This document shows positions 6,001 through 54,953 of a DNA stretch of 64,000 nt, piece by piece. The stretch lies in contig OZ237773.1 of the NCBI GenBank assembly GCA_965178125.1, positions 186,001 to 250,000 of the forward strand, written 5' to 3'. The notes under the pieces were generated by a model. It did no database searches, had not been told where the DNA came from, and was given only the letters and a program-made list of their open reading frames with translations. Each line of letters begins with the position of its first letter. Position 1 is the stretch's first letter. A program made the position numbers and the translations under genes. The DNA is from Bilabrum cf. latius (taxonomy: Eukaryota).

Positions 6001-6103
6001 TGGAGGCGAGCACCGCCATGTGCAGGTCGCTGTCCTTGTTCACGTCTTCGTCGCCATTGCCGTCCACATCTTCATCCCCACCATCATCATCATCATCATC
6101 ACC

Positions 6104-6135
<32 letters not shown>

Positions 6136-7271: not shown

Positions 7272-7952
7272 TTAAGGCCAGTCCCCGTCGGGGTCACTTC
7301 CCTCAGCAAAGGGATTATCTCCAGGCCCACCCCCACTGCCAGGCGCTTGCCTCACAGGGGCGGGCGACGCTGGCCTTCCCCCCGCCTCGGGGTCATCGAA
7401 CCCACCCCCACCTGAGTCACTCCCATCCTCTCCGAATGTGGCCTGGGCTCGCTGCTCGTTTTCACGCCGCGCGGCGCTGTCCCGTGCTTGCTGCTAGTTG
7501 GGCGCTGAGCCGTGGCCCTCTCCCGTGGTCATGAAGCACGAAACGATGAACGAAAGCAAGCCCGCTAGCACGGTAACACCTCCTGTGGTATAGGTTGCCC
7601 AGTGGTTCACCGTGAAATAAAATATGCTCGTGAATACCGCAAAGAGCCCACGTCCCATGTAGTAGTCCAAGAACAAGAAAGGCCACAGCAGGTTCTTCTT
7701 GACTATCTCGATAGTATTCAATGAAGCAAGTGCCATCAGCAGACCGAAGCCGAATCCGTACACTGCCAAGCATGCGAGAGTGATCGTATTGTCGTCCGAG
7801 GAGCCGGAAGCAACGATCCTGTCAAGTGCAACACCGCACAGCGTGCACTGCACTACTCCTGTTAGACCATATAATACTCTCGTGATAGTGACAATGCTCC
7901 AGCATTGCTCTTCTCCGCCAGCAGCCGCTGGGGCAGGTGCTGGTGCAGACAT
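7272..7952 (-). CDS. COPI-associated / TVP15-like Golgi membrane protein
   Basis: Hydrophobic segments with the F-L-x-Y-x-GRGLF motif (PFLFLDYYMGRGLFAVF). TAG at 7494 reads into an acidic tail (N[Q]QQARD...DNPFAEGSDPDGDWP) ending at TAA 7272-7274. Confidence 0.75.
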
Positions 7953-8444
7953 CTGCAGTGAAAATGAAGCAATGCCGTTTTACAAGGTGCCGTCCCAAAT
8001 ACCGAAGAACACCATACCAGATGTACATATAGTAATGTAAGGCTGCTAGAACGCGCAGTGACCTCCAGGGTTGAAGCCTAAGGCTACGACGATTCTTCAC
8101 GATCTGGCGTTTGAGAGATACAACGAACACTGCGGCTCCCGAACTCACTGTCGAAAGCAAAGAAGCTTTAAAGTTTTAAAATGGATTGGTGCCTTCGCAA
8201 GAGCTAATTTGAACTGATGTAGCAAGCAGCATTCGGCGGCTGTCCACTGATCACACTTTCGAATCCACTGTGGCACCGATCCGAGCAGCTGGTTTTAATC
8301 TAGAACAGATAAATTGCAATACATGACACTGTATTGGCGAAAGGCAAACGCAATGCGTGCACATCTGACAAGCGGCGGAGCCTTCCCCATGTACCCAAGT
8401 GCCAGCCGATCAATCCATCACAAACGCATCAAGTCGATGCTCGC

Positions 8445-10057
8445 TCACTGCGTCGAGACGGGAGCATCCTCCTCCTCCGTCTTTCCGGGCGCACCCTGCC
8501 CCTTTACGACCGCGGGATCCAGGCAGGTCATGTTGCCGTCTTCGTACCAGCACACCGAGCCGCCCGCCGGCACAACGCGGCACCTCTGCGCCGACCGCAT
8601 GAGCGCCACCCCGATGGGCGTATCATCCTTCAGGTGGTACTTCTGGAACTCCTCCCAGCCGCTGAGGATCTCCGTCGCCTTTGTAGCGTGATAAAAAGGC
8701 ATGTCGGAGAACAAGTGGTGCACCACGTGAGAGTCGGCGATGTGGTGGAACGCGATGTCCCTGAGCCAGCCCCACGATCGGTCCACGGTCGCAAGGGCAC
8801 CCCTCAGGAAGGTGAACTCGCCCTCGTGCCAGTGGGGCACGTACGTGTCAGTGTGCTGCAGGTACGTGATCAGCGTCAGGTGCGCGTTGACCACGAGGTA
8901 GGGAACAAAGTAGTGCGCGCCCATGGCCAGAGGACCCACCCACACGGTCAGCAGCACCAGACCGGTTGCAACCGCCATGAACCACACCAGGCTCTCCCGC
9001 ACGAACGGCCGCTCTCCCTTGGTGAACAGCGCCGAACGTTCCTCGAAATGGCTGTTCCTCTTGCCGACGTATTTCTCCGGCCCCGCAGCGTTGATGGCGA
9101 GATAGGCGGGCCACCCCACCACGGCGATCTTGATCGTGTCGAGCAGCGCACCGAGGGGGCTCGTCGCGAAAGCCTCCTGCACCTTGTGGGAGGTGTGCCT
9201 CCACTGCAGCTGCTCCTGGGTCACCTACTGCTGGTCCTCGGGGGCGGTCTTGGATTCGGAGCCGGAATGCTCGCCCTCGTCCTTCTTCGCCTGGGCCGCA
9301 AGCTCCCCGATCGAGTCGTAGGCGGCCGGTACAAACACCTCGTCGTTCTCCATGCAATTGGTGTTTGCGTGGTGGTTGGCGTGTGAGATGCGCCATGGGT
9401 GGAAGGGGACGAGCAGCGCAGTGTGAAGCACATGGCCGACGAGGTAGTTGATCCAGTCCTGCTTGGCGAATGCGCGATGCCCGCACTCGTGAGCGACAAC
9501 CCACAGCCCAGTCATCACGCAGCCTTGAGCGTACCTGTGAGATGCATGGAAAGGGTGCGCAGGCAGGTGTGGATGGTGCGCCGGAGCAGCAGACTGACTG
9601 ACCTTAAAAGACATACATGCGAGGCAACGACAACTCAGATGCTTCAGAAGCAACAACGGCCTGATCGCCAATGAAGAAACATAACGCTTCTATGATTGTC
9701 TCAAACGAGCTCCGATAGAGTCATTTCATTGCATGGCTGTCCTCACCAGTATGTTGGCCAGGCCACCAGCTGCACTAGTCCCGGCAGCTCCTAAATTTGG
9801 AGACCGGCGTAAAGTAGTACAGCAACAAGAATAATATCACGAACCAAATAAACGAAAGACCAAAACAGGCTTGGCGTGAAAAGGTCTACTCCGTCGCTGT
9901 GGCTCTTGATGTAGTTGCGAACGTCGTTGATAGAAAACGGAGGTGGCTCCACACATTGCGGACTTGGCTACCCCGCGAGGCTCTTCTGCGGCTTGTTAAC
10001 TTGTTGAGGTGCCGCTTTGTTCCGAGATTGCGTAATTGACTTGCCTCCTTTGCCCAT
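8445..10057 (-). CDS. FAD2: Delta-12 (omega-6) fatty acid desaturase; exons 10057-9747 and 9534-8445
   Basis: N-terminus MGKGG...PPFSINDVR. Spliced WPTYW|YAQG with GT-AG intron 9746-9535. His boxes HECGH, HANHH and HVVHH. Three in-frame TAG (9968, 9791, 9225); stop TGA. Confidence 0.93.
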
Positions 10058-10351
10058 CTTGGCTGCTGTTCAAGATGCATCTCGCGACGCCAGCCCGCAA
10101 CGGCGGTTGTAACCAAATTGAGATAGAGAAACAATCAGAAATGCGGAATCGGGGATGGCTTGATGTCGCCGGTCCATTCCCTCGATTAGATTCGAGTGTT
10201 GATAACTGACATTCACTATGTTCAACAACTTTCTCCCGCTGATCGATGACACGTGCAGACGGCCCATTGAACCAGGCCATGGCACGTGGCTTCTACCCTA
10301 CCATGCCCAGCACGCAAGAATCCAAGCTTAGATTGCTGATAGCACATCAGG

Positions 10352-14461: not shown

Positions 14462-15485
14462 CCTGATAATGACTAGTGCCGATTGGCATTCAAGGCTTTG
14501 CCTGCATGCAGCCCCTTTGCTGTTTTCGACACTTCAGTTGAAAGTCCTCTTGAAGCCATCAGTCTCGGTCTGGGCATACGACGCACGGCTTAGACCCTGC
14601 TCACTGCGAGGCAGTGCAAGCATTCTGGGGCTTAAGCAAAGACGCTCGGCGATGCGGGCTGCTACGGGGCTTGCCGGCTGCGTCTGGTGCTAGAACCCCT
14701 CGCCGGTGACGACAAGGCGGAGTGGGTCACCCTGGACGTGGAAGGGCCACATCATGCGCGTGGTACCTTCCGAGTATCTTCAGCTCTGGCCCTACGCGAC
14801 CTGATCGACATGGTGGGTGCCGATATGGGCATGGTAGACCCGTGCAAGCTTGTCGAGAGCGGGCCGAAGCCCCGAGACCTGCAACCTAGCTCGGAGACTC
14901 TGGCCGAGGCAGGCCTCGCAGGACGTGGCACAAGCCAGCTCCAGCTGCGTGTTATGCCGCGTTAGCAAGTGCTACACATAGTTCCTCTAGGGGGCGGGAC
15001 AATCAACATTTATGATATGGATTGGTCGGACACCATAGAGTAGCTGAAGCAGAGGATCAAGGACAAGGCGGGCATCCCCGTGGAGCAGCAGCGCCTTATC
15101 TTCAGTGGAAGTTAGCTGGAGGAAAAAGCCGCACGCTGGCGGACTACAACATTCAACGGGAGAGCGTTATACACCTCATTGTTAGGCTGAGGGGCGGGAT
15201 GATGCACCCCTCTTCTTGTTGGGTTGGCCTGCGTGCAGACATCCGGGAGAAGTTCGCCATTCCTGAGAGCGGCACAAATGCATGGAACTGCCTACAAGCA
15301 CAATTGCGAAGGCGTGGCGGGCCCAGCTGGAGGACGAGCCTGTCTTTGCCAACGTCCAACTGCCTGGTAGGAAGGACCTGGTGCGGGTGGAAGTTGAGTC
15401 CGGTATGACGCTGGAGCAGCTGAGGGACGCGGCTGAGGAGATTGCGGCTGCAGAGGATAAAGAGGATGAGGCGGACGGGTTGTAA
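14462..15485 (+). pseudogene. Tandem ubiquitin-like domain protein, frameshifted (pseudogene or assembly indels)
   Basis: SDTIE[TAG][23 protein letters not shown][TAG]LEE, then a frameshift in the A5 run (~15123) into [24 protein letters not shown]. Upstream degenerate UBL motifs KTLGDAG and ETLAEAG. Second frameshift ~15270; in-frame TAA at 14633. 5' boundary uncertain. Confidence 0.7.
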
Positions 15486-20806: not shown

Positions 20807-23800
20807 TCATTCCCAACCTTTGGCTGCAATCGATTCGGCCGATAGCTCAAACTCTCGGTTCAAGCAGGCGGCCATACGCGCCCGGCCTGCCATCCTCCTC
20901 ACCCTGTCCCTTGGATCCTCCGCCCTGGCTTGCCCTTCCTAGCAAGCCCCTGCATCGAGCCCACCCTACCTGAATCCAGGCGTCTCAATGCCTTTGGCCC
21001 CAGTTTGCGACCTGGATTCGCCACCGCTCAGCAGGTACTGAACCAGAGACCTCGCCCATGCCAGCGCAACTGCTTCCGGTGTTTCACAGTCACCACGCCC
21101 CGACAATGCACCGAAGGCCTCGCTGCTTGGCTTGCCACCTTGTCGACCGTGCCCACCGCTCACGGCGTCTTCACCGGCCAGGCTACTAGCCAGGGCGTCT
21201 TCACCGGTCAGGCTACAAGCCAGTGCAGCAGCACTGAGGGGGGCATCCTCGACGGACTCTAGAGCGGAGGGGACATGCAGTGTGACGAGTGAACCGGCGT
21301 TAGTTCCAGGGGCACAGCCATGGCCCGAAGCGGTCCTGTCCGTGCCTGGCACCTGGTGCTCGCTTGGGGATCGGTCCCCTGCAGTACGATGCACCCTGCG
21401 GCGCTTGCTCGCGCGTTGTCTACTCCCTGTGCTACCTCTCACTTCACTCGTCACACCACCTGCGCTAACACTCATCACACCGCACCAGGCTGCGGACATC
21501 AGCCGCAGCAGCGACCGAAGAGGCCACGAGGCCCCGTTGGGACCCCCGCACGTGTAGCAGTGGCCAGCGCGATCCGGCAGGGCGCACTCGTCACACCCCT
21601 ACTCGCAGTGGCCTGCGCGATCCGGCAGGGCGCACTCGTCACACCCCTACTCGCCTCCCCACTTTGGATCCGGACTGGACTCAGGTGAGGAGGCCGAGCT
21701 TGCTGGCGGCAGGTCCCCCGCCGCTGTCTGTTCTCTGCGTCCTGCTGCAGCTTGCCCCGCAGGCTCGGTCGTTGCATCGCTCCTGGTGCCCCCTGGCTGG
21801 GGACTGCCCTCCAGCGGCCGCACCCCCGGCGTAATGCGGTCAGCTGGCAGCAGGTTGCGGAATGCCTCGGCGTGACGAGTGCTTCCCGCGCCGCCCCACT
21901 CGTCACGCCCGGATCGCAGGACCAGGCTGACATTCACGCCCTTCACCTGCATGACACCTGTTTCACTGTGACGAGTGACCCCGGGGCTGCTACCACATCC
22001 CTCCCACCGCTACTCAGAGCTGCACTCGTCACATGTACACAAACACTCATCACACCCATGCAGCCTTGCCAGCGCTCGGAAGAGCAGCACGGCCTCGCTG
22101 CGAGTAGGAAGGGTGACGCCGCCGCCCGGGGGCCGCGTGTCCTGCCCATCCAGAACTGCTTTCCATTTGGTCATGGCACCCGTGGGCTTCCCCCCACTAT
22201 CAGCACTCCCATGATTTGAGCCAAGGCAAGAGAACACCCACTCCAGCGGAACCTCCACCCCCAGCGGCGCCGCGCCGTGGTCGGTACCCAGGCAGAATCC
22301 GTATTCCTCCGCCAGTTCCAGGGAACAACGGCTCCCGTAGTGGATGAACACCTGCGGAACCTCGACCCCGGGTGCATCGCATTCATGTGCACGTTCATGA
22401 AGCGGGCCATCATCTGCACCATCCCCGGTGTCGCTACCACCGGGGCCCGCTTCGGCACTGCTTGCTATGATACCTGCGGCTTTGCCCAGCCCTGCCTGGC
22501 CAGGCCCACAGGCCACCGCATACGCCACCTCGGATTCGGAGCCGGAAAATGCTCCACGGGTCGCTCTGAGCCGCTGACCTACAGTGCGCTGCACCCGCAC
22601 GGCCCCCGAGGTTGCAACCGCAGGATCGGGAGAGTGGTTCAGCATGCCCAGCCAGGGAACAAGGGCCCCGGGATCGCTCTCGTCCAGCCACTGCCAGTCC
22701 CAACCAGACAGACTCGAGATCGAGATCGGGATCGATCCTGCCATTATGTCGGCCGTCTGACTCGGTGATGCAGAGGGAAGCTATTTTGAGGGGCTGGCAC
22801 CCGCCCCCTCCTCCCCGAGGCCAGCGCCTGCTCCGGCACTAGCATGACCCCGCAGCAGTCTGCTCAGCTCGGGCGCAAGCTACGCCTGCGCCGCTAGCGC
22901 ACTCGTCACATGGGCCGCCGCCACCCTCACCCGCGCAGGCCTCGGGAGGACGTCCCCGCCGTGACCAGTGAGCTTGCGGAACCGGGCGCCGCGCCGCTCC
23001 CGCTTTCCCCTGGGTCCCAGCTCCGGGGGCAGGAAGCAAGCCCTGGAGGTCACGATCCCGTGGGCCCAGGCAAAGTCCAGCCAGGCGAGAACCCCGGGTG
23101 CACCTATATGCAATGCATCATCTGCACCAAAAGCAGGCGCAGAAGCAGAACCCCCGCTATGGGCACCCCCTCCTCCCCCTTTCTTTCCCGTTGTTCCCCG
23201 AGCCTGTGTGAGAGCCTCCGCGACTGCCGTTCCAGCAGGCGACATGGCCGCCAGCAGCCACATGCAGCGAACCCTGCCGAACCTTCTCTGAACTGCCCCT
23301 CGCAGCTGCGGGTACCGCAGCAGGTCCCTCGTGTCCTGCTCGCTCCATAGCTCGAGCAATTGCTCCAGATCTCTCGAGGCCTCAGGAGCGGGGTGCTCCT
23401 CCTCTTTGACGCCTGCCCCTGCACCTGCACCTGCACCTACCACCACCGATGCCCCTGCACCTGCACCTGCACCCGCCTCTACCACCACCGATGCCCCTGT
23501 CCCTGAAATTGCACCACCCGGGAGCGGGGCGCGGGGCGGTGCTGTTACTGTGCCTGTTGAAGCAGTCGCTGCAGTGAGAGCCGTGCTGGTAGGCTGGCCC
23601 TCTGCTGCTGCACATGAGTCTGCTTCCATACGGGCTGCTGCTCCAGCACCCGTGCCAGTGGTCTCGCTATACACGCTGGTTGCTGGGAACATTCGCGTGC
23701 CGATCGATGCAGCGTCGATAGCTGTGCTTGTTGTCACCCTGCTACTCCCTCTGGTTTCAGTACCATCCACACGGGAGGTGTAGGCGGTGTCTTGCTCATC

Positions 23801-24256
23801 CACAGCAAGTTTCGTGCTGTCCCGGCTCGGTGCTCCAGTTGCGCCATCGTGCCTTGAGACAGGTGCATTTCGACGAGCAATAATCGGTAAATCATGGTTG
23901 TGTCCTATGCCAGGCAGCTAAGAAATCCACAAATGCCATGGAGACGCCACCCCGCGCGATGCTTCGTGCAGCAGTAGCAGGGCGAGACGCACCGCTCGCG
24001 GCAAGCTGCTAAACTAAGCTTGCTAGGCCGCAACAGAGGCCTATTTTGTAAATCGTGGTTTCCAATCATCATGTGCCAGGCACACATCGAGTGGCACGCA
24101 GACAAGTGCGTCGGCATTTTCCAACGGAGTAGATGCCGACCTTGCAAACCAGCCCATTCCTCTGCCTGTAGTCTGAAACTGTCTTACTCCCAGCTCTTCT
24201 GCACTCCAAATCCCTACAGATTTCGCCCATTTCTAGAAACGCACCTGATCCGCCAT
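20807..24256 (-). CDS. SET-domain protein lysine methyltransferase (Rubisco LSMT/SETD3/4-like) with large low-complexity insertions (~1149 aa)
   Basis: ATG at 24256. Motifs TGRGMG, LALLLLHE..G..SPW, FAWAHGIVTSRA, ALVPWLGMLNHS, QVFIHYG....LAEEYGF. About 12 in-frame TAG; TGA at 20807. Confidence 0.85.
21557..21652. repeat. 48-bp tandem duplication (1 mismatch); each copy carries CACTCGTCACACC
   Basis: 21557-21604 versus 21605-21652. Confidence 0.95.
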
Positions 24257-24450
24257 TTGTGTTGACCGAGCAAGGCCACTCGAAGCAGTGCAGCAAATGC
24301 TTCGAGTGATGTTAGCTGTGATTCCCCTTTATCACCGTTAAACTTAATGAAACAAATCCAAACGCATTATGAACCTATCAATGAATGTTTTAGGCGGAAA
24401 AAACTCCACAATATTCTTTAGTCTGCAGAAGAATCACGATTCACTGTTTT

Positions 24451-24824
24451 ATACAGAAATACAGAAATACATTGTTGGGTAAAGATTCCACAAGCACCCA
24501 GATGCACCGTTGCCCCCGAAGGAGTTCGAGTGATCACCTGAATCCAGAGGAGTCCTCAAACAAGGACTACAAGACCCCCGACCCTTTCAGGCCAAAGGCC
24601 CCCCAATCTCAGCCTACACCGCCGAGTCCCCTTTATTCGCCATCAATGTGGTCCCCCACAAGCCCTCAGCCTGATGCCTTCACATGGAGAAAGCATACAG
24701 GTGCGGAGCATGTGCCCGGCACAAAGCGCGGTCCAGTCCCACATCAGGGTCCCCTGCCGGGACCCACCATTTCCTCCTCCATGACCGTCTCTGCGTCTCA
24801 CGATCCTTCAGAGAGGCTAGCATG
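24451..24824 (-). mobile_element. 5'-truncated non-LTR retroelement-like repeat, copy 1, with (TATTTCTG)n 3' tail and putative TSD TGTTTT
   Basis: ~375 bp near-identical to 39542-39923. The 8-bp tandem tail is at the left end. TGTTTT flanks both ends (24445-24450 and 24823-24828, overlapping the element by 2 nt). Confidence 0.7.
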
Positions 24825-24942
24825 TTTTTCAGGACTTTATTGTAACGTGATGCGTCTGATATAGGTCTTCGTCCAGCGAGGAACTGACGATTGAAACAGA
24901 GCGCGCCATTTCAAAAGAACTCACGAAGCGTAAATTGCTGCC

Positions 24943-29100: not shown

Positions 29101-29996
29101 GATTGGTGAGTCTTCTGAAGTCGACCAAGGACGACGAAGCGGCATGGGCAGCAGGTGCTCTGCAGAACGTGGCAGGATTAGACGATACTGTCAAGCAGGC
29201 GCTGCTGGATGCAGGAGCGTTGCCCGGGCTTGTGTTCTTGCTGGGGTCCATCGTGGACACCGAGGCCGAACGAGCAGCTGCCACCTTGGGGAATGTGTGC
29301 ACTGGCCCTGATAGCATGAAACAGGCGGTGATCGACGCGGGTGCGCTGCCTGAGCTTGTGTCACTTCTTGGGTCCACCAAGGGCAGGGAGGCCGAGTGTG
29401 CGGCCTGGGTCCTGCAGAACGTGACGACTGGGCCGACAAGCATGAGCAACGCGGTTCTAAGTGCGGGCGCACTCGCCGGTCTCGTGCCATTACTTGGATC
29501 AAGCGAGGGCGAGGGGGCGGAGAGTGCAGCCGGAACATTGTCAAACATGGCCATAGGCCCGGACTCTGCGAAGAAGGCCGTGGTGGACGCCGATGCTCTT
29601 CCTGGACTGGTGATTTTGCTAGGATCTAGGAAGACGACGGAGGCAGGCCGTGCAGCCGGTGCAATCAGTGGGCTGTGCGCTGGATCCACGGATCTGAAAC
29701 AGGCTGTTGTGGATGCCAGTGCTCTGCCTGGGCTCGTTGGCTTGCTTGGGTCCAGGAATGGCAACGAGGCCCTAAAGGCAGCTACAGCGCTGCAATTGAT
29801 TGCAATCGGGTCGCCTGACCTAGCCCAGGCAGTGGTGGATGCCGGCTCGGTGGATCCCTTGAAGCGACTGCGGGAGTCCGGTAGCGGCGACGTGGTCCAT
29901 GTTGCAGGGCACGCCATCTCGGTGCTGGCCCGTATGGCGAGGGGGGTGGATCCCGATGCGGTGCATCGCATGAAGAGGAGGAGAGTGGGGAAGTGA
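26160..29996 (+). CDS. PINK1-like Ser/Thr (pseudo)kinase fused to ~15 armadillo repeats (~1278 aa)
   Basis: ATG at 26160. TAG at 26286 and 27936 join the kinase (GGFGAVF, AVK, HRDLKLDN, GGNQAHLAPEV, WALG..LHEL) to 42-aa ARM repeats (VVDAGALPGLVxLLGS...AAGALWN). TGA at 29994-29996. Confidence 0.88.
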
Positions 29997-30291
29997 TGAA
30001 CCGTAAGGCGAGAGGTTGGCGTACATGGATGCGGTGGAACAACACTGGCAGTGGGAGCACTTTGCAGCTGATGCTATGGCTGTATGGCTGTACGAGATAA
30101 TGTATCGCCTGCAGGTTTATCGATTGCAATACCAGCACCTGGGATAGTTTGTGTCTTGTACACTTTAATCACCATTTGATTGGCACAAGCATTGCAGGTG
30201 GACCAGTCTTGCGCGCGGCGCCTTCTCGATATTGGTTCCGCGTCTGACATGGCCAGCAAAAACTGAGCCTAACCTACACAGAAATCGCAAC

Positions 30292-30646
30292 ATGTCATTG
30301 AGATTGGCGACAAAAAATGCTCTTACTGGACTTCTGATTGCAGGGGGCGCAACAGGAATCTATCTATTCACAATGTCACGCATGCGAGCTGTGAGTGTAC
30401 CAGCCGTATTCCCATGCTATGCTTCGTCTGCGGTGGCAGGGGAGCCATCAACTTACAATCACTGTCTTATTACGCATGTTTTCCCATGTTGTCATGCAGA
30501 CAAACTTGAACGACATCGATGAGGAATTGAAGGCTCTGCAGGCATCGGAAAGGAAGAAGACGCCAGTTGCCGCGCAAGATAGTGCGTCAAATGGATCAAC
30601 AGAACGACAATCTGATATCGGTGGATCCGGCGATGGTCGAGGTTGA
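30292..30646 (+). CDS. COA3: Cytochrome c oxidase assembly factor 3-like (COA3/CCDC56); exons 30292-30390 and 30500-30646
   Basis: KNALTGLLIAGGATGIYLFTM TM helix followed by acidic NDIDEELK. Intron GTGAGT...CAG 30391-30499; TGA. Confidence 0.65.
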
Positions 30647-30743
30647 TATCTGCGCTCATAGCTTGGGCAGCATTTGAACAGATTTGACGAACAGGAAGGC
30701 ACCATCAGTCTCTTTCAGTCCCTAATCAATCTACACGGAACCA

Positions 30744-32057
30744 TCAGCCCGATTTCATCGGGACAATCCTGAACCTGTAGACATCATCGCTAAGTGCGGC
30801 CACATTCCGACTTACCTAGCCGCTTTCCACAGACCTTCTATCCTCTCCATGTCTGCTGCCGCGCCCTGCAGCAGAGGGACCCGCGCTACCGTGCCCTGCA
30901 CCCCCAGCCGCGGCACCCAACGCTTTACCACCACCCTCAGGCCCATCCCCGCCCTCACCCCCAAAGGCTCCCCCCGCCCCCGCCATCATGGCCTCACTCC
31001 CCCTCTCCCTGAGAAGCCTCCGGAGCCCCCGCAGGAAGCTATCAGCCGCTTCGCACAGGGCACCGACCTCCTCCCAGTCCCCGCCCATCCTGCCCCCATG
31101 GACGTCCAACCACCTCCTAAGACGCCGCAGCCGCCCTCCCGCCCTGGACAGCTGCCCTGCCTGGGCCTCGCCGTACACGAGATGCAGCTCGCAGCGGAGA
31201 GCTGCGGCATACCTCCCGGCCAGCAGGCATATCTTCTGCTACGCAAGTGCCATGCGGCGAGCGTGCCGCAGCTGCCGGCACATGAAATGTCCCCCGCCTA
31301 AAGTTGATGCCAGCGCTGAAAGAGACCCCAGCGTGGCCTCACGGCGCTCCCAGGCGCCAAGCCTCCTGCACCAAGACAGGCCGGGCACGCGGCGGGCTGG
31401 GTCTGCGGCGAGAATCGCCGGTACCAAGATATGGACGTGGCAAGTAGCAGGACGGCTTGAACAAACAGATTCGTGGCCTGTTACCCTGCCACTGGTGGGA
31501 TCGGATGCCCGGCCGGACTCGTCCCCAGAGGGGCCGGCGCCACCGCCAGATTGCGCGGAGGATTCGGCGCCTTGCTGATCATCATGATGATCATCTCCAC
31601 TGCTAATCGATGGTGAAGCTTTGTCCCGGAAAAACCGAAGTGCTATAGCTTGGCCGGTTCTTACCACGCCTTGCTCCACTGCAATGAATCTGCAGGAATG
31701 GTTGCGAGCCTGACACTCGCTTGCAGGGGTGCGTTCGTGTTCCTGAACGAATCGACGAGCTGCAACGGACCCAATGACTCTACCCCGTTGCCACTGTATG
31801 CCTGAATGCATGCTATTGATGCCCTACGAATGCTTCTGCCGCATTCGCTGGCGCTGTGTGCGATCGCCAGCAGTCGCCTCGACTGTGCGACCTATAGTAT
31901 CACTACTTGATAAAATTGCAAACGAAAATGAATTAGTAGCATATTGGCTGGTGCCGGCACTGCGCATAGCTCGTTGAAGTGCAACTCGCTCGCCACGCAA
32001 GAAATACCCCAACGAATCAGCAGTAGCAGGAGCAAACATGGTATGGAGAAGCGACAT
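30744..32057 (-). CDS. DUF4807-like protein (5' end uncertain)
   Basis: ORFs 31824-32069, 31239-31811 and 30816-31178 are in one frame via TAG. Motif STLGGGHFMCR...A[Q]QKIC..G...LRCELHLVY...QAG; TGA at 30744. Confidence 0.55.
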
Positions 32058-32226
32058 GTAAGCGTGCACGTATACCCGCGCTGTGCTTCAAATCTTTCCA
32101 ACGGAGCTTTCGAAGTGCGTAAAAAAAAAGGCCTACTAGTACTCGTCATCGTATCAAGCCAACAAAAAGTGCAACTGCAGCGCGCTAGTTACCCTTTGCC
32201 TCGAAATATGTTTGACGCAACATAAT

Positions 32227-33656
32227 ATGGAAACCTCAGCAAAGGGGCTCCGCTCGATCGGGTTGCACTAGGATGTCCATGGGCGGATAAAATCAGCGCA
32301 TTGGCATGCTCTCCGTGGTCCCCGAGCACCGGTTCGTGCGCTTGACCACGGCGGAGTAGCACAACAGGAAAATCGCAACACAATGGATGCAAGGTATGCA
32401 TTTAGTGCCCCCCGCGTAGCTCCCTTCGCTGAGGATATTGTTCATGCTCAGCCTAACCAGCTCGTGGCAAGGTTGGACGCAGCCATGGCGAAAACGTCAC
32501 TGATTTAGCATGTATCCCGTGATGATCTAGGCGCTTCCGGGGGGTTGATAGGTACAAATAGATTTAGAGCTTATGGTAATCGTAGGCTGTCGGGGAAGTA
32601 CGATCACTTGCGGAAGGCCCAGGAGCTATCAGCGCTACTTGCAGCAGCAATCGGCGATTTTCGGTCCATGCCGCGAGCTGTCACTGAAGCCGCAGAGCGA
32701 CTGTGCGACGAGTTAGACGATGTATTCAAAGGCCTGTATCAGCACCACTGGAGGAGTACCGGCCTGCGACTGGGACACACAGACAGGTCGCCGGGAGGCC
32801 TGGGCGCCTCTTCCGCTGGTCGGCAGTGGCTGCTGATGAGGGGGGCTCTCTCGTCCACTGCGCACAGCCTGGTGCACGCCGACCACCTTTGGGGACCTCG
32901 GATGCTAGCCCTCTATGCCAGGCTGGCCGGACCACCCGGTGCGCCACTGCAGTGCGATGCATTTGGCAACGCGATCGCAGGGAGTCGCCCCCCCGCTGGG
33001 TCGGTGCCTCCGGGCCCTGGTCCTGGCCCTGGTCCTGGCCCTGGCCCTGGCCCTGGTCCTGGCCCTGGCCCTGGCCTTGGCCTTGGCCATGGCCATGGAG
33101 AGGAAGTGAGAGAAGGAGAAGGAGAAGGAGAAGGAGAGGGAGAAGGAGATCCGATGGATCCCGTTAGCATCCAGGGAGCACAAAGGACCCAAGCAACAGC
33201 GAGGCTTACTCTCCCCGAGGCGGCAGCCAGGATGGCAGGTGCCGACCCAAGAACGGCGCGGCGACATGCCTCACGGCTGCTCCGATCGTCTGCGGAGGTC
33301 GCTGAGGCGGATTTTCGCGCCGCGTCAGAGGCAGCCCGCCTGATCCGATCCGCTGCGACGGCGGCAGAATGGGTGGGTGGTGACCCGGGCGTGCTCGCTC
33401 TAGAGGCCGGGCACATGCAGCGCGCGGTTGTTGCCATGCACCGCAGCCTCTTTCTGCGGCAGTGCAGTGCAGCTTTTCAGAGGATGGTGGGAGGGGGTGG
33501 GCGCGGGGGAGGCGATGGGGTGTGGGGTTCGAGGGGTGCTGGAAGTGACGGTGATGGGGGTGTGACGAGTGCGGCTGCCAAGGTGCGAGTGCCTAAGCGG
33601 GTGGGCATGGCTGCTTCCTCTAGCGATGATGACGATGACGATAGCGATGATTCAAG

Positions 33657-33690
<34 letters not shown>

Positions 33691-36690
33691 GGGGGTGATA
33701 GGAGTGCCAGACGTGGCGTCAACACGCCCGGGACACAGGGCCTCGATCGCGGCGGACTCGGAATCGGAGAACAGTCATCGCTTAAAGATGGAACCAATCA
33801 AAAAGATGATCGTGAAGATGATGGCGGGGCAGACGACGGGGGCGATGACTGGCTGTTTGGAGGAGACAGCGACGGCGATGGAGATGGAGATGTAGATGAA
33901 GGCGACGGTGCAGCAGGTGCAGCAAGCAGTTCTGTGACTGAACAGGGTGGCGTGAGGCAGAAAACCGAATCGAGCCAAAGCGAAACCACACCAGCTGGCA
34001 TGCAACCGAGCAGTGGTAGGGAAGGTGCAGGCAGCGAGGACGAAGGCAATGAAGGTGACGATGACGGCGGGCTCTTCGCGGGTCTGCTGGACGGCGATGG
34101 TAAAGACGACAAGGATTCGGATAATTCAGGCCCAGGGTCTCCGGCAAATGCACCCAATGGGATTGGTAGCGGTGGCGGTATGCGACTGTCGCAGTCCTCT
34201 GTCGTGAGCATGCCTGAGCCATCGGACCGATCCACAGGTTAGGGCTACACAGGTCCTGGTGAGGCCGATAGCAGGTCACCTGTATCGAGCATGAAAGGCG
34301 GATCCAGTGGCGGGGCGAGCTTAGGTCAGCCGCAGTACGTTTCGGACAAAGGAAACTCCGTGCGATTCGAATCCACGCCAGGGGGGTAGCAGCCCATGGA
34401 CACTGGCGGAGATGATGACGAAGAAAACACGGACGGAGGGAGCATCGGCTCCACTGACACTGGCGCGGATGACTTCGGCTCTGACGATGGAGGCAACAAC
34501 ATTGCCTCGGCTGCGCAATCCAATAGGAAGACCAAAGAGCTTCCGCCACTGGGTCCAGGCAATGCCGGCGCTCCCAGTACCGGCGGCACTTCCACTCACC
34601 GCGGCAAGCCAGGACTGGTGAATCAAGAACAAGTCGGATCTGCAGGTTGCAGTGGTGTGGCGAGGTCTAGACCGAGAGATCCGAGGTCAGGGAATAAGCA
34701 AGGTCCCAGGTCAGGGAACAGGCGCCTCAGGCTGGTTCGGCTGCCTTGGTCTCAGGAAGAGCAAGATGCTTGCTGTGGTTCTGAGGCTGACCAAGCCGAC
34801 GGTGAAAGCGTTGCGAGTCTAGCTCACTGCATCGCTGCAGACGGGCAGCTGCATTCCATCGAGCTGCCTGTAATCCAGGGCCACCCCGCCGATGGTTCAA
34901 TCCTGTGCACCAAAAGGCAGGAAGAACTCAAAGCCTTTGGAGTAATCGAGGCAGCCTACGTGCTGGACGCACTCGCCATGGCTCTGTCGGGCAGGGGTCT
35001 TCATGCTGCCGCGTGCCTGCTGCAGCTGCTGTTGGAGCGTGCTACTGGTGGCAATGCTGCCGAAATTCAAAGTGGTGGCTTGGTCTCTTGGAAGCAATTG
35101 GCCAATTGGCTTGCGGACGGTGCGAGACAGCAGCCGTCATAGGAGGTACCCGGGGGCTGCAAGAGCTAGTCCGAGGTATTGAATTCTGGTACGCTTGGGT
35201 CAGGGCTAGCTGCTCTGATAGACGTGGTGAAATGCGCCTACATAGGGTGCACGGCATTGCCATTCCTTACCAGTGCCCAGGTGGCAGGTGCTTTGTTGTT
35301 CTTTCAGTACGGAGAGGGCCTTGAGGAGCTGGACCAGTGGCACAATCAGGAGCAGCTGGAGTCTGCGGGTTCGTTGCAAGCTGATGCATCGAGTGCTGTT
35401 CACCAGGATGTAATGCAATCGGGTGGCAAATCGAGGCTTTCTGCGACAAATGGGCCCCGTGCCGTGCTCTCTGTTCTCTCCAGCCGACTGCATGCCATCG
35501 CTAGTGTTGCTGCAGACACCGGCTGCTGGATGGATGGGCCCATTCCATCCCATGGCAGCTAGGCGTTTCGGTAGGAGCTTGCGAGGGTTCGATTCCATCT
35601 GCAGTCGGAGGCTCCAGGGCGTAGATTAGGTGTTCCGGTGAGCCCGATCATCTCGTCAGGCGGTATAGCATCAGGGGGGGCTGCTCCTGCAGCATTTCCT
35701 GGTGCGTCCGTGATGCTAAGGTCGCGTCCAGCCATCTCGAGTTTAGCTTAGGAATCGTCCCAGGGAAGCAGTGAGCACCATGGTGTCACAGGAGTGCGAT
35801 GCATCTCTCTAGCTTCAGCCTGTCTCAGCCACAAAGGGGTGGATCGGTTTAACACGATTGGGGCAGGGCTGCACACAGGAGGACTGGAGGAGCCTAAAAG
35901 CAAGCAGAATAGCCCAGGTGCTATTCCGGTTGATGCGGGCACGGGTGGCGTGGCTGTCCCAATGACTTCATCTTCCTCCCCAGACGATACGCAAGCCGCC
36001 CAAACAGCAGAAGAAGCTGCCGAGGATCAGCGGCAGCAGGCGATTGACGAGACAGTGAGGCTGGAGACACTCGGGCGCGAGGCGGCCGCTGCGGTGCATC
36101 GGCTAGAAGCATTCCCAAAGATCGGATTGGAATCCATCCGCGGACTGCGATCGCGGCGAAGGAGCAGCCGCCGAGGCGCTGACAACGGCCATGAAGGGCT
36201 CAGGCGTGCTGCGTGGGAGGCGCTCCGTCAGCTGGCGGGGTTTGACCCAGACGGACTGGGGGCGGGCGATGAGGCAGGCAGCGTGGGCGCCGGCGCTGGG
36301 ACTGCGGTTGCGACCGGTCGGAGCGGTAGAATGGGTGCTCGTTCGTAGCATCGGCCCCGCCGCCATCGCCGAAGCACCTTCGGTACCGGGCACCGTTCGA
36401 ATGCGAGGCATAGGGCGAGGCGTGGCAGGCGCTCCTCGCTGATGCCTCACCGCAAGAGCGGCGGCATGGGCGCGATGCTGGCCAGGAGGGGCGATGAGGA
36501 CGAGGACGAGCAAGAGGACAGTAGCAGCAGTGACAGCGACAGCGATCCCGATTCTTTTGGCGGCAGCAAGGGTGGTGATGACTCGGATCATGGTCATAGG
36601 CGAGTTCGACTGAGGGACTCCACCGGTGGATTGAAGCACGCACGGGCCAGTGCTGTTCACCCCGGCCAAGCCAATCATCGCGCCAGAACC

Positions 36691-36758
<68 letters not shown>

Positions 36759-37776
36759 CAGTGCCTCCGGTGCGACCGGTTCCAACCAAGGTGTATCACA
36801 CGATGGTGCGCTCCGGATCCACTCGAAGGCAGCCCGTAGCCTCTCGGTCGCAATGGGCGGCCATCTCAGCGATGCACGAACAGGCAATGCTCTCGAGCAA
36901 CGGCGGTACGCGAGCAAAGATACAGCCTCTAATGGGATCATGGGCGCGGCATCGAGTGAAGTATTTCGGAAGGATGGCACTACTCATACCGAGCCAGGTG
37001 CATTCGGGAATTCACATGGTGGTGCCAGGCCTAGCACAGACGGCCAGGCACACATCCCAGGGACAGAGTAGGCAAGCGACACCGACTCAGTATTCGAGGG
37101 ACCTGCAGTAGACAACAACCGGCCCGAGGTTGGCACTGACCCCCTCCGGCACCCCTGTCCCATCCTGCGCGTGCCCCGGCCCCACGTTGACCTGGCCCCT
37201 CTGGACGTTTCGGCTGCTGGTGCCTTGGATGCGCTCCAGCAAGCTGACTCGCTGGCGCTGCACCGTGTGACGGTATGCGATTACGGTATGACGGCCATGC
37301 AGAGGGACTGGTGGGCGGCTGCTACAGGTGTGACGAGTGATGGACCGCTGTGCGAGGCCGTGTCACTAGCAAGGCCTGACCCGATCAGGATCGCTCGGGG
37401 CTGTGGGGATGCGGACGACGGCCCTGGTGATGTTGGGCACACAAACGGTACCGACGTTGGAGTAATTGATAGCCGCGATCAATCAGGTCGATCATCCGGC
37501 ATAGATCGGCAAGGCCCCTCCACTGGACCGCCAGATGAGCAGCAGCGTGACAATCGTCATCTTCGGCCAAGCGAAGCAGGCCTTGGCAGAGGTCCGGGTC
37601 AAGTAAACCACTCCAGTCCATGCGCCGCACCTGAAGATTAGGTTGCCATGGATGGGTCCGAAGATTCAAATGCCGGTAGCAGTGATTCAGACATAGCCAG
37701 TCGGGATTGTGCTGATCCTGCGTCACCTGTCCAAGCAGGTGAGCGAGCTGCTGGTCAGTCACAGCAATCACCAGGT

Positions 37777-37810
<34 letters not shown>

Positions 37811-39291
37811 GCGCAGTCACGCAGCTCCCGCCCCACACGCAGGCCAGCGGATAGGTGGACTCGGCCTGGCGCGCACTGGCTCTATCCAGGGAACAAATGG
37901 GCCTGTGCATCGACTCGCGGGCCGCATTGCTCACGGGGATCATGGCAGCGAGTGGTAGTATGTGGCGGGTGGAAATGGCACTGAGAAGCTCTGCGGACAT
38001 GCGCGGGCTGTGCCTGTTCCACAGCAAGGCGCACTTGGAGTACGCTGGACGGGTTGCACCGAGTTGTGCGGTGGATCTGCTCCGTGTGTGCAGTGACCAG
38101 CTGGGGTCTGCGGCTGCCAGCTCGGTGGCAGCACTGGATGGAATCGGAAAGGGGTAGGCTCCAAGGGCATTGGCGCTTGGGAGGCCTGGCGTGCCCATGG
38201 AGCTCCTGTGCAGAAATACCAAGTCTGAATGTGGCATCAAGGTGTTATTGGAGTAGGGCAGACAGGTGTCGGCCTCCACCACTGCCGAAGCCGTGCATGG
38301 ATCCGGGCAGGCCGCTGGTCTTGATGATCTCATTTCACATGACGGAGGAGAGAGGGCTGAGATATGTGACACTGGCAGCGAGTCATCTAATAATGGTCTG
38401 GAAGCAGCCGAGGACGAATCTGCCTCCAAGGTCCGGCTGTCGATGTGGCATGCACGAGCCGAGGAATCGTTCCAGTTGCAGCTGCTCGCAAAGACGGACC
38501 AAGTGGACGTGCTGTGCGGGGGCGGGACCCAGGGCCGACAGAGGAGTGCGCAGGCCGTGGAGAGGGGCGGGAGCACTGCACTGCGGTGCTTCGGGTGGCT
38601 CAGAGAGGAGGCTGCGGGGGCCAACGGCACGCTTGGGTGCTGGTGTATAGCAGCTGCTATGCGCTGCGATGCGATGTCGCGGCAGGTGGCAGAGGCGATA
38701 CAGCGAGCCGATGTTGTTTGCTTGGCAGCAGAGTGCTCGAGACTGGTGCTGGCGGGATGCGTGGCGCCTCAACTTGCGGAACCATTTGCTGTACTGGCTG
38801 CTGTGGCCGATGCTGTACGAGCCTCGGGTGCACTGCATGCCTGCTTAGTTGGCGATGTAGGAGATGAAGCGGTCGATGCAATGGACAACTTGCTTGCAAA
38901 CTTGCAAGATGCCTGCAGCGGTGCGAGATCGGATCAAAATAGCCTGGGCTAGGGGTCTCCTGGGCTAATTGAGCTTGTGCAGGCGTGTCGAGCCCTTGTC
39001 AGCGAGAATGTGCTTGAGCATCGCATGCCCTATCCATAGGATCGAGCTGCTAGTTCAGGCCATGGTGTGGCTGCACTTGAGACGCAAGTGTTTGCCGACG
39101 ATAGATCTGATCGTGGTGAGCACCCGAGCGCATCGTTGTCGCTGCTGGTGTCTATTTTACAACTTTGGGAGGTCACCATGGTAGGGAAATCCACTGCCGG
39201 AGATGCGCCGGTCCTTCCCAGCCCGCCCAAGGGGAGCGTGGTGGCGCTGGCAGGTAAACTGATTGTTTCAATGGCCTTACCATAGGATTAA
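32227..39291 (+). CDS. Giant low-complexity protein of unknown function (~2350 aa; 3' end may be spliced to ~39500)
   Basis: ATG at 32227. Eleven track ORFs from 32545 to 39285 lie in one frame with ~18 TAG and no TAA/TGA until TAA 39289-39291. Candidate splice donors at 39254 and 39296. Confidence 0.78.
33016..33147. repeat. Hexamer tandem repeats (CCTGGY)n and (GAAGGA)n encoding (PG)n and (EG)n
   Basis: Directly visible. Confidence 0.9.
36693..36762. repeat. (AGC)n microsatellite encoding poly-Ser
   Basis: Directly visible; shorter copies at ~33661 and ~37778. Confidence 0.95.
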
Positions 39292-39541
39292 ATCGGTAAG
39301 TAGCCGAAAACAACCATCTCACCGCCGCGGTAATCAACTTTAGGGCAGCGCTGGTCCCGAACAGGCAGTCGATCTATACTAGGAGGGTGTGCCGGCATCT
39401 GGTGCTGCTGGAGGGAGCGTGGAGGCTGACGCCGCCCTGATAGGAAGTGGAGGTTGGCCCTCAGGGTGGTGCCCCAGGGGCCTAGACAACTGCAGCTGAT
39501 GGGCAAATCATCGTGGGTTCCGGGCCATAGTTTAAGATCGG

Positions 39542-40330
39542 ATACAGAAATACAGAAATACAGAAATACATTGTTGGGTAAAGATTCCACAAGCACCCAG
39601 ATGCACCGTTGCCCCCGAAGGGGTTCGAGTGATCACCTGAATCCAGAGGAGTCCTCAAACAAGGACTACAAGACCCCCAACCCTTTCAGGCCAAAGGCCC
39701 CCCAATCTCAGCCTACACCGCCGAGTCCCCTTTATTCGCCATCAATGTGGTCCCCCACAAGCCCTCAGCCTGATGCCTTCACAGGGAGAAAGCATACAGG
39801 TGCGGAGCATGTGCCCGGCACAAAGCGCGGTCCAGTCCCACATCAGGGTCCCCTGCCGGGACCCACCATTTCCTCCTCCATGACCGTCTCTGCGTCTCAT
39901 GGTCCTTCAGAGAGGCTAGCATGCACGCGCTCATGCCTTTGGCCCATTGCCTCTCTATGTCCCTTAGCTAGCCGTGGGGCTTAAACATCCGTCGCTGTAG
40001 CCGAGCGTTCGCATTGGTTGCCGCTATCAGCTCTTGCGTGGCCGTGGCGGCAAGAGCAGCCGCCGCATCGCCTCGCATCCACTGCCTGCACGTCAGCTAC
40101 TCCTGCTAGCGCAGCTGGTTCCTGATCACCTGCACCACTCGGTTGGCCAGCTCCTTGACAGCTGTCCGTTCCGATGACCGCGCAATCGTACGCTCTATCC
40201 GAGTGAGTGCGTCTTCGACGATTGGCTTGGCCCTGCTGGTGCGCTCCAGCTTCTCGTCCCAAGGGTCCTGAGCGAGAGCTGTCTTCGCCCATGCTTTCCG
40301 GAGAGAGGCAGGGGACCTCCCTCTATTCTG
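39542..40330 (-). mobile_element. Longer copy of the non-LTR retroelement-like repeat: C-terminal ORF fragment (TGA 39779), ~230-nt 3' UTR, (TATTTCTG)3 tail; 5' boundary approximate
   Basis: 39542-39923 matches 24451-24824. The minus-strand frame of ORF 40106-40525 continues through TAGs to TGA 39779-39781. Confidence 0.6.
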
Positions 40331-40539
40331 ATCCGCATCATCGGGTTGCCACGGTCTCGTTCCGGCATGATGGTCGGATTCGGGATTTCGTGATTGCGTG
40401 CGCTTTGGGGTTGGTTGCACCAGCAATATACCAGATCTGAATCGAACATCTGCACCAAAATTGGGCAGATCTAGGCAGACAGCATTTACAGCAAGTTGTA
40501 CATTTCTTACTTCGTCATTTATCACTCAAGAACAGCTCC

Positions 40540-41988
40540 ATGTTTGCGGTTACGATAGCACTACTATGCCTCGCGGTCGTGTCCCTGGGTTCCAAGACCT
40601 CCGTTAGTATCTGTGGTGACGGGACACAATGGTGCGTGAATGGCAGAGAGACCAACAAAGGTGCGAAACAGCGTTCATGCTCCAAACTGTTATGCAGGAG
40701 AGCTTCAACTGAGAAAGTGGTGCAGCAGTTGCAGTTGACTCTTTATTCGCAGGATCCAAGGCCGAAGGTCTTCTGATAAACAGCCGAATGATCCAAGGCA
40801 TATTTGATGATGAAAACTCTACTACCGTGGACATGTGGAAGTACCCTGACACTGGGCGGTAAGCTGTACTGAACGCAATAATGATGATCTTGCATCGCTG
40901 TCGAACGTATTGACCAAGCCTTTGCACTGGATCACTCCGTACTTACAGTTGGGACCCGGCTCGCAACACCAATGAATTCATCGGTAATATCTCCTAGTGG
41001 GTGTCCAAGGGACTTAACGGCTTCACGGTCGGCATGCAGGGCGGCGGGCCAGTGGGCGGCCATTTCGGGGACAAGCAGCCCTTCATCACCACTGCGTACA
41101 ACCCCGACGGCAGCCTAAAAGCCTCATGGAACGACCGTATCACGCAGATCCTGCGCGCGGCGGACGACGCCGGCGCAGTCGTGATCGTGCAGTGCTTCTA
41201 CCACGCGCAGACGAGGCGGCTTGCCGGTGACATCCCAGTGCAGAAGGCCATCAACGAGACGGTTGACCTGATCGTTTCAGGGGGATGGACCAATGCGGTG
41301 CTGGAGGTACTCAAGTGAGAGACTAGCGGGGTGCGGGGTGGGGGGGAAGTGCATGCCCTGCATCGGCCTGTCTGTTGCCTCCAGTGCAGCTGCCCATGAG
41401 CTTGGCTCTAGGTCAGGCTAGTGGTTGCTTGCCGGTCACGCGCGCCAAGCACGGCATTTCCCATCTCATCAATCGTTCCCTCCATGCTTCCTAAACTATG
41501 TTCACTACCGCAGCGAGGTGAACGTGGGCACCCAGGACAATCCGCCCTACCTGCAGCCAGATGTGATCCAGGTCGCCATCGCGCAGGCCCAGGCGAGGGG
41601 CAAAGGGCACCTGCTCGTGTCCAGCTCCTGGGGGGGAAGGTCCACCATGCCCACAGAGGCGTGTGTGGCGCAGGAGGACTTCGTGCTGCTGCACTGCAAT
41701 TCAATGCAGCCCGGTGAGATCGGGCCCTACCTGCAGACGATCCGGAGCATGTCTGCGTACTCCAGCAAGCCCAAGCCCATCCTGTTCAACGAGTGCTCCG
41801 TGGACTTGGGCGTGTTTCAGCAGGCGGTGCAGCACGGCGCCGGGTGGGGCTACTATGACCAGGGCACGAGCGACTACAACGACGGGTACCAGTCCCCGCC
41901 CACGTCCTGGCTGGACCGTGGGACGAGCAGCAAGGAGGGGTTCTTCGCGATGGTGCAGAACCTGACGAGCGCTGGGTATGGGCAGTGA
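40540..41988 (+). CDS. Secreted glycoside hydrolase-like TIM-barrel protein; exons 40540-40660, 40753-40858, 40949-41314, 41514-41988
   Basis: Signal peptide. Spliced GLLINSRMIQGIFDDEN...YPDTG-WDPARNTNEFI, LEVLNE, KPILFNE, WGYYDQG..DY..GYQSPP. Three GT-AG introns; TAG at 40995; TGA. Confidence 0.8.
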
Positions 41989-42107
41989 GTCGCTGCCACT
42001 GGCAGCAGTGACACCGGTGCTAACCAGCCGGGAGCCTGAAATTCCACCCATTGCTCACAGTACTCGTACAGGTCAACTTTGCTGAAATCAATCAGTACGA
42101 ATGCATT

Positions 42108-43207
42108 TTATTCATTCATTGGTTGGCCACTTTTCTTTTTGCCCGCCCTCATGGAGCTGGCGCTGTCCCTTGCTCGCTCACTCACGCGCTCCTGACCACC
42201 TTTCAAAGTTGAGGCTGATGTGGTGACCACGACTCCGTCCTCTCTTGCACATTTGGCCAGCTCTTCACCCAGTACGGAAGGAGCCGACTTGCACTCGTTG
42301 GTGTCACAGTAAAATCCATCTGAATTTCGCCATTGTCCTGCATATCTGCCTTTTTTGAAGCCCTGGAGCCCTCCCACCGCTCTGGGTGAAGCTGGCGGCT
42401 GGGCTTCGCTGAGCCTCATCATCATGCGGCGTATGCTGTCCTCGTCACCGGTGCCGGTCGGCTCTCCTTGCTATGCATCAGATCTGTAGGAACAAGTAAA
42501 TTCGACCACCTTTGGCTTCGCGAGCGCTGCCGCGAAGGAGTTTGCCACCGAGGCAGTATCGTGCTCCCTGCTCTTTTCGAGCTCCTGCAGCACACTGAGG
42601 ACGAGCACTTGCTTGGGAGAGCGCAGACGAAGTTGCTTGCTCTTCACAAAATTTCGCTAGCGCAGCTTCATTCGTCGTGGGATTCCGATGCGAAGCTGCC
42701 CGCGGTCGGCATAGTCCTAAGACAGCTCGCCTGCGGCGATGCTAGAGCCTGTGGCGCCCGAGCCGATCGAGCCCGACAGCGTACAGTCGTTCATGCCATC
42801 ACTGCCGACGTGCAAAGTTCCCTCTGTAAAGTCACCATTAACTATCATTGATTTGGCCCTCATGCAGGCTTTGGGCTCCACATTCTCTAGATGCACTGCC
42901 TTTGCCCGGGGGTGCACAACTTGGGGTCCCTCTTCCGCGAAAGCTCCCTATCTTCCGCGCCGTGAGCGTTTGGGGATGCTATGCCACGAATCTGAATCAA
43001 TTTTGCTATTACTTTGATATTTTTTAATCGTTGGCTGCAATGTAGCGACAGAAGTCAGTGAACTTCAACTAGACTGCTGCAGCACATTGGAATTGTCCAG
43101 CGAGGTATGAGGCTACATAGAACTCTCACCAAAGCAGCAGCACCAGCATGCGAAAACTCAGTTGCAATTCCAATGCGAGAGTCGGTAAGGGCGATGCACT
43201 GTCCCAT
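42108..43207 (-). CDS. Uncharacterised protein with MGQC N-terminus (possible myristoylation/palmitoylation); exons 43207-43130 and 43034-42108
   Basis: Intron 43129-43035 (GTGAG...CTGAC...TGCAG); four in-frame TAG; ends at TAA 42108-42110. Confidence 0.6.

Positions 43208-53289: not shown

Positions 53290-54953
<1,664 letters not shown>

Follow-up and report, generated by a model that had tools for sequence, protein, structure and literature searches.

Can the stop codons UAG and UAA, which most nuclear code changes reassign together, be given separate meanings in one genome? The question is raised by a stretch of DNA from the eukaryote Bilabrum cf. latius (GenBank assembly GCA_965178125.1, contig OZ237773.1, positions 186,001 to 250,000) in which protein-coding frames contain many TAG and no TAA. 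We analyzed this whole stretch, hereafter the window (64 kb; GC 56–64%, ~60% overall), and consider it very probable that its genes follow a code of the type of NCBI table 15, in which UAG alone has been reassigned to glutamine, UGA is the principal stop and UAA serves as a stop less often. An earlier reading of the sequence (hereafter, the original prediction) had proposed just such a UAG-only code with UAA as a stop and UGA dominant, and it is supported by all counts from the window and by the C-terminus of a related protein, P0190.

The counts were taken from a curated set of 22 gene models, which covers 50,106 of the 64,000 bases and 16,682 codons. The models combine long open reading frames (ORFs) with eight splice joints; two of them leave the window edge, so 20 have complete 3' ends, the desaturase, ArfGAP and Nuf2 models consist of last exons only, and transcript support is absent for most of the 22. 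The joints come from the alignment of spliced contigs from the public sequencing runs X5 and X6 to 20 kb of the window (30001–50000). These runs are not labelled as RNA runs; their contigs nevertheless skip eight GT..AG intervals (CT..AC on the other strand) of 90–281 nt that the DNA run X4 retains, which points to nuclear DNA from a eukaryote that has introns and splices its transcripts. Pfam domains found in the window ORFs are those of fatty-acid desaturase, ubiquitin, protein kinase with Armadillo repeats, FAD-dependent oxidoreductase, Brix, Nuf2, MIP (aquaporin) and ArfGAP.

In-frame UAG and its amino acid

With TAA, TGA and TAG all treated as stops, the longest ORF of the window has 686 codons; with TAG open it has 2410, and opening TAA as well adds only 74 codons (2484). 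Within the 22 models TAG occurs in frame 87 times, close to the ~90 internal occurrences first reported, and it is present in all deciles of gene length. In-frame TAA numbers 0, in agreement with the claim that intact genes contain none, as does in-frame TGA. CAA had been said to be in use, and it is, with 167 in-frame occurrences beside 479 CAG; UAG makes up ~12% of the Gln codons in these genes. The counts by frame over the 22 genes are as follows.

TAG: 87 in frame, 118 in the +1 frame, 122 in the +2 frame
TAA: 0 in frame, 50 in the +1 frame, 57 in the +2 frame
TGA: 0 in frame, 295 in the +1 frame, 369 in the +2 frame

Two neighbouring genes covered by spliced contigs show what happens to these codons in transcripts.

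42108..42863, − strand: MGQC gene, 251 codons, three in-frame TAG, TAA end; intron 43035-43129 upstream of the ORF
40540..41988, + strand: secreted hydrolase-like gene, exons 40540-40658, 40751-40857, 40948-41314 and 41514-41988, TGA end; X5 contig

An X5 contig in which two hydrolase introns are skipped retains the in-frame TAG at 40995-40997, and an X6 contig without the intron 43035-43129 retains all three TAG of the MGQC gene; each shows 0 differences from the window. Because TAG is kept in these spliced contigs, it is not edited away at the RNA level. UAG is in frame and frequent in conserved, expressed genes of the window.

The amino acid at these positions can be read from alignments of three of the conserved genes and from a ubiquitin-like ORF.

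45067-47082, − strand: FAD-dependent oxidoreductase (Pfam)
47534..49424, + strand: Brix/SSF1 ribosome-biogenesis gene, 3 exons, two introns
54804..53290, − strand: ArfGAP gene, last exon

Codon 72 of the FAD-oxidoreductase is TAG (46867..46869, −) and faces Gln in 20 of the 20 aligned homologues, a further row being a gap (21 homologues); the other four TAG of this gene sit in variable columns. The Brix TAG at 48918..48920 (+) stands in a column that holds Q in 15 of 29 homologues, K in 6, R in 5, T in 2 and H in 1, and the remaining Brix TAG fall in variable columns (two) or inside an insert (one). In the ubiquitin-like ORF, the TAG at 15113..15115 (+) matches the Gln of ubiquitin '...FAGKQLED...' and another matches Asn, while the TAG in the zinc-finger motif 'NPxWAS' of ArfGAP (54760..54762, −) corresponds to Gln in ArfGAP1 and to Ser in ArfGAP2 and ArfGAP3. 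The closest homologues outside the organism's own lineage were ~40% identical in the FAD-oxidoreductase and Brix searches. A crude log-odds score over eight TAG columns ranked C (5.99) above Q (3.73), and we discarded it because this order stems from the effect of pseudo-counts on Cys, a rare residue. A Gln neighbour accompanies 11 of 87 TAG and 71 of 645 Gln codons, compared with 1167 of 15,926 other codons; the excess of Gln neighbours at TAG over other codons is suggestive only (p = 0.064). Since the conserved TAG columns show Gln and the variable columns are uninformative, UAG is a sense codon, most likely read as Gln.

UAA outside the frames and at gene ends

If TAA were synonymous with TAG, the ratio of CAA to CAG in these genes (167:479, 26% A) would lead us to expect ~30 in-frame TAA, and the probability of finding 0 is 5e-12; even at the lowest A-ending share in these genes, that of CTA/CTG (0.126), it is 8e-6. 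A-ending codons are in regular use, CAA making up 26% of CAR, with corresponding shares of 29% for GAA and 31% for AAA. Over the two strands of the whole window the triplet counts are 224 + 228 for TAA and 901 + 874 for TGA.

This test called for a check of circularity, since the ORFs had been defined with TAA as a stop, and we therefore examined the stretch past each bounding TAA. Eleven same-frame extensions (eight upstream, three downstream) run for 1–192 codons to the next TGA, with a mean of ~55, where the density of TGA (901 in 64,000 positions) predicts ~70 codons for non-coding DNA. Only one extension is long: its 192 codons, on the upstream side of the gene at 2..6733, correspond to the ORF 6776-7270, which has a GC3 of 0.54 and no Pfam family. 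The shortness of the extensions and the gain of only 74 codons on opening TAA imply that genes are not split at TAA and that the test is not circular. A codon-score test applied to the flanks of every stop triplet found both flanks coding-like for 5 of 912 TAG, 0 of 451 TAA and 0 of 1774 TGA at a threshold of 0.2, and for 13 TAG, 1 TAA (the MGQC stop) and 3 TGA at a threshold of 0.15; it has low power at either threshold, coding windows averaging only 0.14 bit per codon, and was not used as support. Within the window, UAA is not used as a sense codon.

One TAA, at 14633, had been described as internal to a frameshifted locus. The frameshift is real; the TAA is not demonstrably internal, since it sits in frame 59 codons ahead of the ubiquitin-like ORF's first ATG. 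This ORF (14810-15260, +) carries three in-frame TAG and is frameshifted beside an A5 run (~15122-15126), past which the end of the fold continues in another frame; the locus is either a pseudogene or the product of a homopolymer assembly error.

The 20 complete 3' ends comprise 17 TGA (85%) and three TAA, which bears out the statement that nearly all genes other than the three TAA-ended ones end in TGA; the 60% GC content fits this dominance of UGA. The TAA ends lie where they had been placed, at 7272-7274 (−), 39289-39291 (+) and 42108-42110 (−), the last being that of the MGQC gene. The other two, and a TGA-ended gene used for comparison, are these.

7272..7952, − strand: TVP15-like (COPI_assoc-like) membrane protein, 226 codons, one in-frame TAG (codon 153), TAA end, next in-frame TGA 22 codons on
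32227..39291, + strand: giant ORF, 2354 codons, 18 in-frame TAG, TAA end at 39289-39291, no Pfam family
58007..59395, − strand: Nuf2-like gene, last exon, TGA end

The contexts of the three TAA are CCT TAA GAT, GAT TAA ATC and GAA TAA AAT, none of them within a GT donor, and reading through them would add 22, 45 and 96 codons. In the MGQC gene, read-through had been predicted to run into the convergent hydrolase gene, and so it does: the 96 codons extend as far as the TGA at 41817-41819 and overlap, in antisense, ~170 nt of the coding sequence that ends at 41988. An X6 contig (joint 43034>43130) covers this gene over 42122-43034 with 0 differences. In a search of representative proteins, the MGQC sequence matched only a 48-aa fragment identical to its residues 1–48 and, weakly, one unrelated protein, its C-terminus remaining unmatched; exact look-ups in a public protein collection matched 3 of 6 fragments in one set and 1 of 8 in another, with those from the C-termini of the MGQC and giant genes among the unmatched.

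The TVP15-like gene offers a comparison at the protein level. Its Pfam COPI_assoc match (E=0.0055, residues 25-160) is below the curated cut-off. A relative, P0190 (250 residues, 94% identical, in the 90% cluster of the public sequence P0189, which is described below), reads through the site of the window's TAG, has an in-frame two-residue insertion in its tail, and has its C-terminus (...GSDPDGDWP) exactly at the residue that precedes TAA in the window protein. The shared end lends modest support to a real stop at this TAA, and from the ORF ends and this one conserved C-terminus we infer that UAA probably terminates translation at all three sites.

In the genes of the window, UGA is a terminator and never sense. 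Two relatives, 94% and 77% identical, share the C-terminal residue before the Nuf2 TGA. The kinase-Armadillo gene (29994-29999, +) and the aquaporin gene (43552-43557, −) both end in TGA TGA; an in-frame back-up stop follows 9 of the 20 ends, which is no significant enrichment over the other frames, with 11 in 40 (p = 0.25). One further ORF ending in TAA (53096-54871, +) was rejected as a gene, being antisense to the ArfGAP gene.

Competing readings and known codes

Several observations weigh against a UAG-only code with UAA as a working stop. Among the eight TAG columns scored in the FAD-oxidoreductase and Brix alignments, six are variable, and the TAG of the TVP15-like gene faces Ser in P0190. 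A donor-like GGTAAGT lies 4 nt past the TAA of the giant gene. Both flanks of the MGQC TAA appear coding-like in the weak codon-score test, the downstream flank being antisense to a strongly biased gene. Two of the three TAA-ended genes are without homologues and the third has an unconserved tail. The conserved stop position, at 94% identity, is weak evidence. The sample, 64 kb and 20 gene ends, is small.

Foremost among the rival readings is one in which TGA is the sole working terminator, TAA is unused or avoided, and the three TAA-ended ORFs are mis-modelled through an unseen splice or a TAA that lies in an untranslated region or intron. There are just three TAA ends, none with an independent 3' end; introns are common (8 joints in 20 kb), the GGTAAGT just mentioned follows the TAA of the giant gene, and TAA is rare throughout the window relative to TGA. 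We nonetheless regard this reading as unlikely: none of the three TAA falls within a GT donor, P0190 stops at the same residue despite the in-frame indel in its tail, and an X5 contig is colinear with the window over 37821-39566, across the TAA of the giant gene, although X5 may hold DNA. Three TAA among 20 ends would, moreover, be an ordinary share for a genome of 60% GC.

More improbable still is a context-dependent or ambiguous code of the Condylostoma, Blastocrithidia or Amoebophrya sp. Kv type, in which UAG or UAA is sense or stop according to position. Such codes exist (PMC12005148, PMC4967479, PMC12153298), a TAG precedes the TAA of the giant gene by two codons, and DNA alone is compatible with termination at some TAG. 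Yet 0 of the 20 gene ends require TAG, and of 75 TAG just one is found in the final 10 codons of a gene. Ambiguous codes, furthermore, have terminators inside genes too, whereas TAA and TGA are never in frame in the 16,682 codons of the models. Amoebophrya sp. Kv itself was set aside as a counterpart, being described as AT-rich and using all three stops as sense (PMC12005148), unlike the window.

Least probable of all, and effectively excluded by the counts, is a coupled code (table 6 type) in which UAR is read as Gln, TAA is rare through GC bias and the three TAA are read through to the next TGA. Those of the best Brix matches that carry names come from chytrid fungi, a nucleariid, animals and stramenopiles; the chytrids and the nucleariid among them would speak for the coupled code, as would the GC-rich genome. 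Chytrid fungi and nucleariids are relatives of the aphelids. For Amoeboaphelidium, decoding of TAA as well as TAG as Gln is reported (PMC6299283), and the coupled code is the commonest eukaryotic variant (PMC5304391). However, A-ending codons are not rare in these genes, the ~30 expected in-frame TAA are missing from frames whose two alternatives hold 107, read-through of the MGQC stop would overlap the convergent hydrolase gene, and the relative's TVP15-like ORF stops at the same position.

The preferred reading, a code in which UAG alone encodes Gln, has a candidate mechanism that we regard as the most likely. By decoding rules and the literature, UAG would be read by a tRNA-Gln whose anticodon, CUA, differs by a single mutation from that of tRNA-Gln(CUG); as C34 forms no pair with A, such a tRNA would leave UAA unread. 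The anticodon CUA has been argued to be the only way to decode UAG while ignoring UAA (PMC5304391). On the side of termination, for which the original prediction had inferred an eRF1 able to discriminate the third base, a single eRF1 would have lost efficient recognition of UAG and kept that of UAA and UGA. In the first two UAG-only lineages, the eRF1 changes noted are T32G in the GTS motif of Iotanema and an Ala at position 69 in exLh (PMC5304391). The 64-kb window contains no tRNA genes by ARAGORN or Rfam, and no eRF1 gene was found among its ORFs in Pfam scans.

Codes of this kind are already known, and what distinguishes the present case is its GC-rich, UGA-dominated setting and the genomic DNA at hand. 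The premise of the original prediction that most eukaryotic reassignments change UAA and UAG together is correct according to PMC5304391; it left out the several lineages in which nuclear codes with UAG alone reassigned have been reported from 2017 onward (PMC5304391; PMC11687900). The first uncoupled nuclear codes, in 2017, were those of the rhizarian exLh, in which UAG encodes Leu, and of Iotanema spirale, in which it encodes Gln (PMC5304391); later additions are Scotinosphaera (UAG as Ser) and the ciliate Protocruzia tuzeti with the phyllopharyngean ciliates Hartmannula sinica and Trochilia petrani (UAG as Gln, table 15) (PMC11687900).

A close counterpart is the fornicate Iotanema spirale (Panek et al. 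2017, PMC5304391), which is also a non-ciliate that reads UAG alone as Gln and retains UAA as a stop, and for which a tRNA-Gln(CUA) and an eRF1 change were proposed. Iotanema is represented there by a transcriptome only and has UAA as its dominant stop, whereas the window is genomic DNA of 60% GC with UGA at 17 and UAA at 3 of 20 ends. Hartmannula sinica, Trochilia petrani and Protocruzia tuzeti share the same table, with UAG as Gln and both UAA and UGA as stops (McGowan et al. 2024, PMC11687900); in these ciliates UAA stands at 93.5–100% of aligned C-termini (PMC11687900), in contrast to the 85% TGA, the GT..AG introns of 90–281 nt and the 60% GC of the window. In exLh, some ciliates (UAG as Leu) and Scotinosphaera (UAG as Ser), UAG and UAA are likewise uncoupled with UAA kept as a stop (PMC5304391, PMC11687900), and in all of them the amino acid differs from that in the window, where the informative columns hold Gln (20/20, 15/29 and the Gln of ubiquitin). 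Most ciliates are AT-rich. Amoeboaphelidium protococcarum and other UAR = Gln lineages resemble the window in reading TAG as Gln in a non-ciliate eukaryote; they are reported, however, to read TAA as Gln too (PMC6299283; for Amoeboaphelidium also PMC5304391), unlike the window with its 0 in-frame TAA.

A literature search, with most subscription journals and supplements outside its scope, found no GC-rich non-ciliate eukaryote described with a UAG-only Gln code. It is possible, though we put it forward tentatively, that the window represents an independent and so far undescribed origin of this code in a GC-rich, intron-bearing, non-ciliate eukaryote in which UGA carries most of the termination. 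If so, a lineage in which UAA is already rare could be an intermediate on the way from the standard code to a full UAR = Gln code, and the genomic DNA would let the tRNA-Gln(CUA) and the changes in eRF1 be read directly. Uncoupling of UAG from UAA in a nuclear code was unknown until 2017 and is still confined to a handful of lineages, several of them represented by transcriptomes or metagenome bins only. Each independent case probes how one eRF1 can keep UAA and UGA yet release UAG, and whether one tRNA-Gln(CUA) suffices; where UGA predominates, eRF1 has to go on recognizing two terminators with no purine position in common and reject one that shares two bases with each.

The code also has a practical consequence. 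Public standard-code gene calls of the same organism end exactly at TAG codons, as three of them illustrate.

Window 42720-42863: P0187, 48 aa, MGQC residues 1-48
Window 7497-7952: P0189, 152 aa, TVP15-like residues 1-152
Window 46870-47082: P0192, 71 aa, FAD-oxidoreductase residues 1-71

Since standard-code calls are cut at every TAG, homology searches will miss most of the proteome unless table 15 is applied.

Other genes, repeats and contig ends

The GT..AG introns extend the hydrolase model to 40540..41988 with three introns; a PDB search with its exon 3 gave no match. Two further models also depend on splicing.

30292..30646: small gene, completed from splice joints
43555..44762, − strand: aquaporin (MIP, Pfam E=7e-52), 2 exons, intron 44245-44525, ending in TGA TGA

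The aquaporin gene carries two adjacent in-frame TAG near its N-terminus, and it and the ArfGAP gene supersede spurious ORFs of the opposite strand. Between the FAD-oxidoreductase and Brix genes lies a lone, full-length 5S rRNA gene (47202-47320, +; 81.4 bits), the sole Rfam match of the window. Its bin depth in run X4, ~630 compared with ~70 nearby, indicates that it is multi-copy.

A 13-mer, GGTGTGACGAGTG, has 34 copies in the window at ≤1 mismatch, compared with 0.06 expected from shuffles (for example at 3517-3529 (−), 33559-33571 (+) and 58087-58099 (−)). All 34 lie within curated gene models, 24 in sense and 10 in antisense orientation; among the sense copies, 19 fall in phase 0 and read Gly-Val-Thr-Ser, and four copies in the gene at 20807-24256, inside a tandem repeat, are in phase 1 and read Cys-Asp-Glu-Cys. 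Copies are variably present or absent at homologous places of the Nuf2 proteins of relatives. The 13-mer looks like a mobile or recombination-related DNA motif that is tolerated within coding sequence.

A high-copy repeat (39339-40672) directly follows the TAA of the giant gene, and a second, partial copy lies at ~24385-24894; their summed contig depths in X4 are ~9300 and 2100, compared with ~55-70 in the flanks. The repeat has many variant positions, and the ORFs 39499-39984 and 24385-24894 encode a nearly identical peptide.

Contigs of runs X5, X6 and X8 diverge from the window at 30446, 38976, 41693 and 48424, with continuations that are absent from it. Over ten such loose ends (including 38976, 39141, 39147 and 41693), 0 of 10 continuations were found in the window, and we did not treat them as splices. 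They could be strain-specific insertions or differences, or joins to other loci or assembly joins. The continuation at 41693 starts with GT and carries the reverse complement of the 13-mer GGTGTGACGAGTG.

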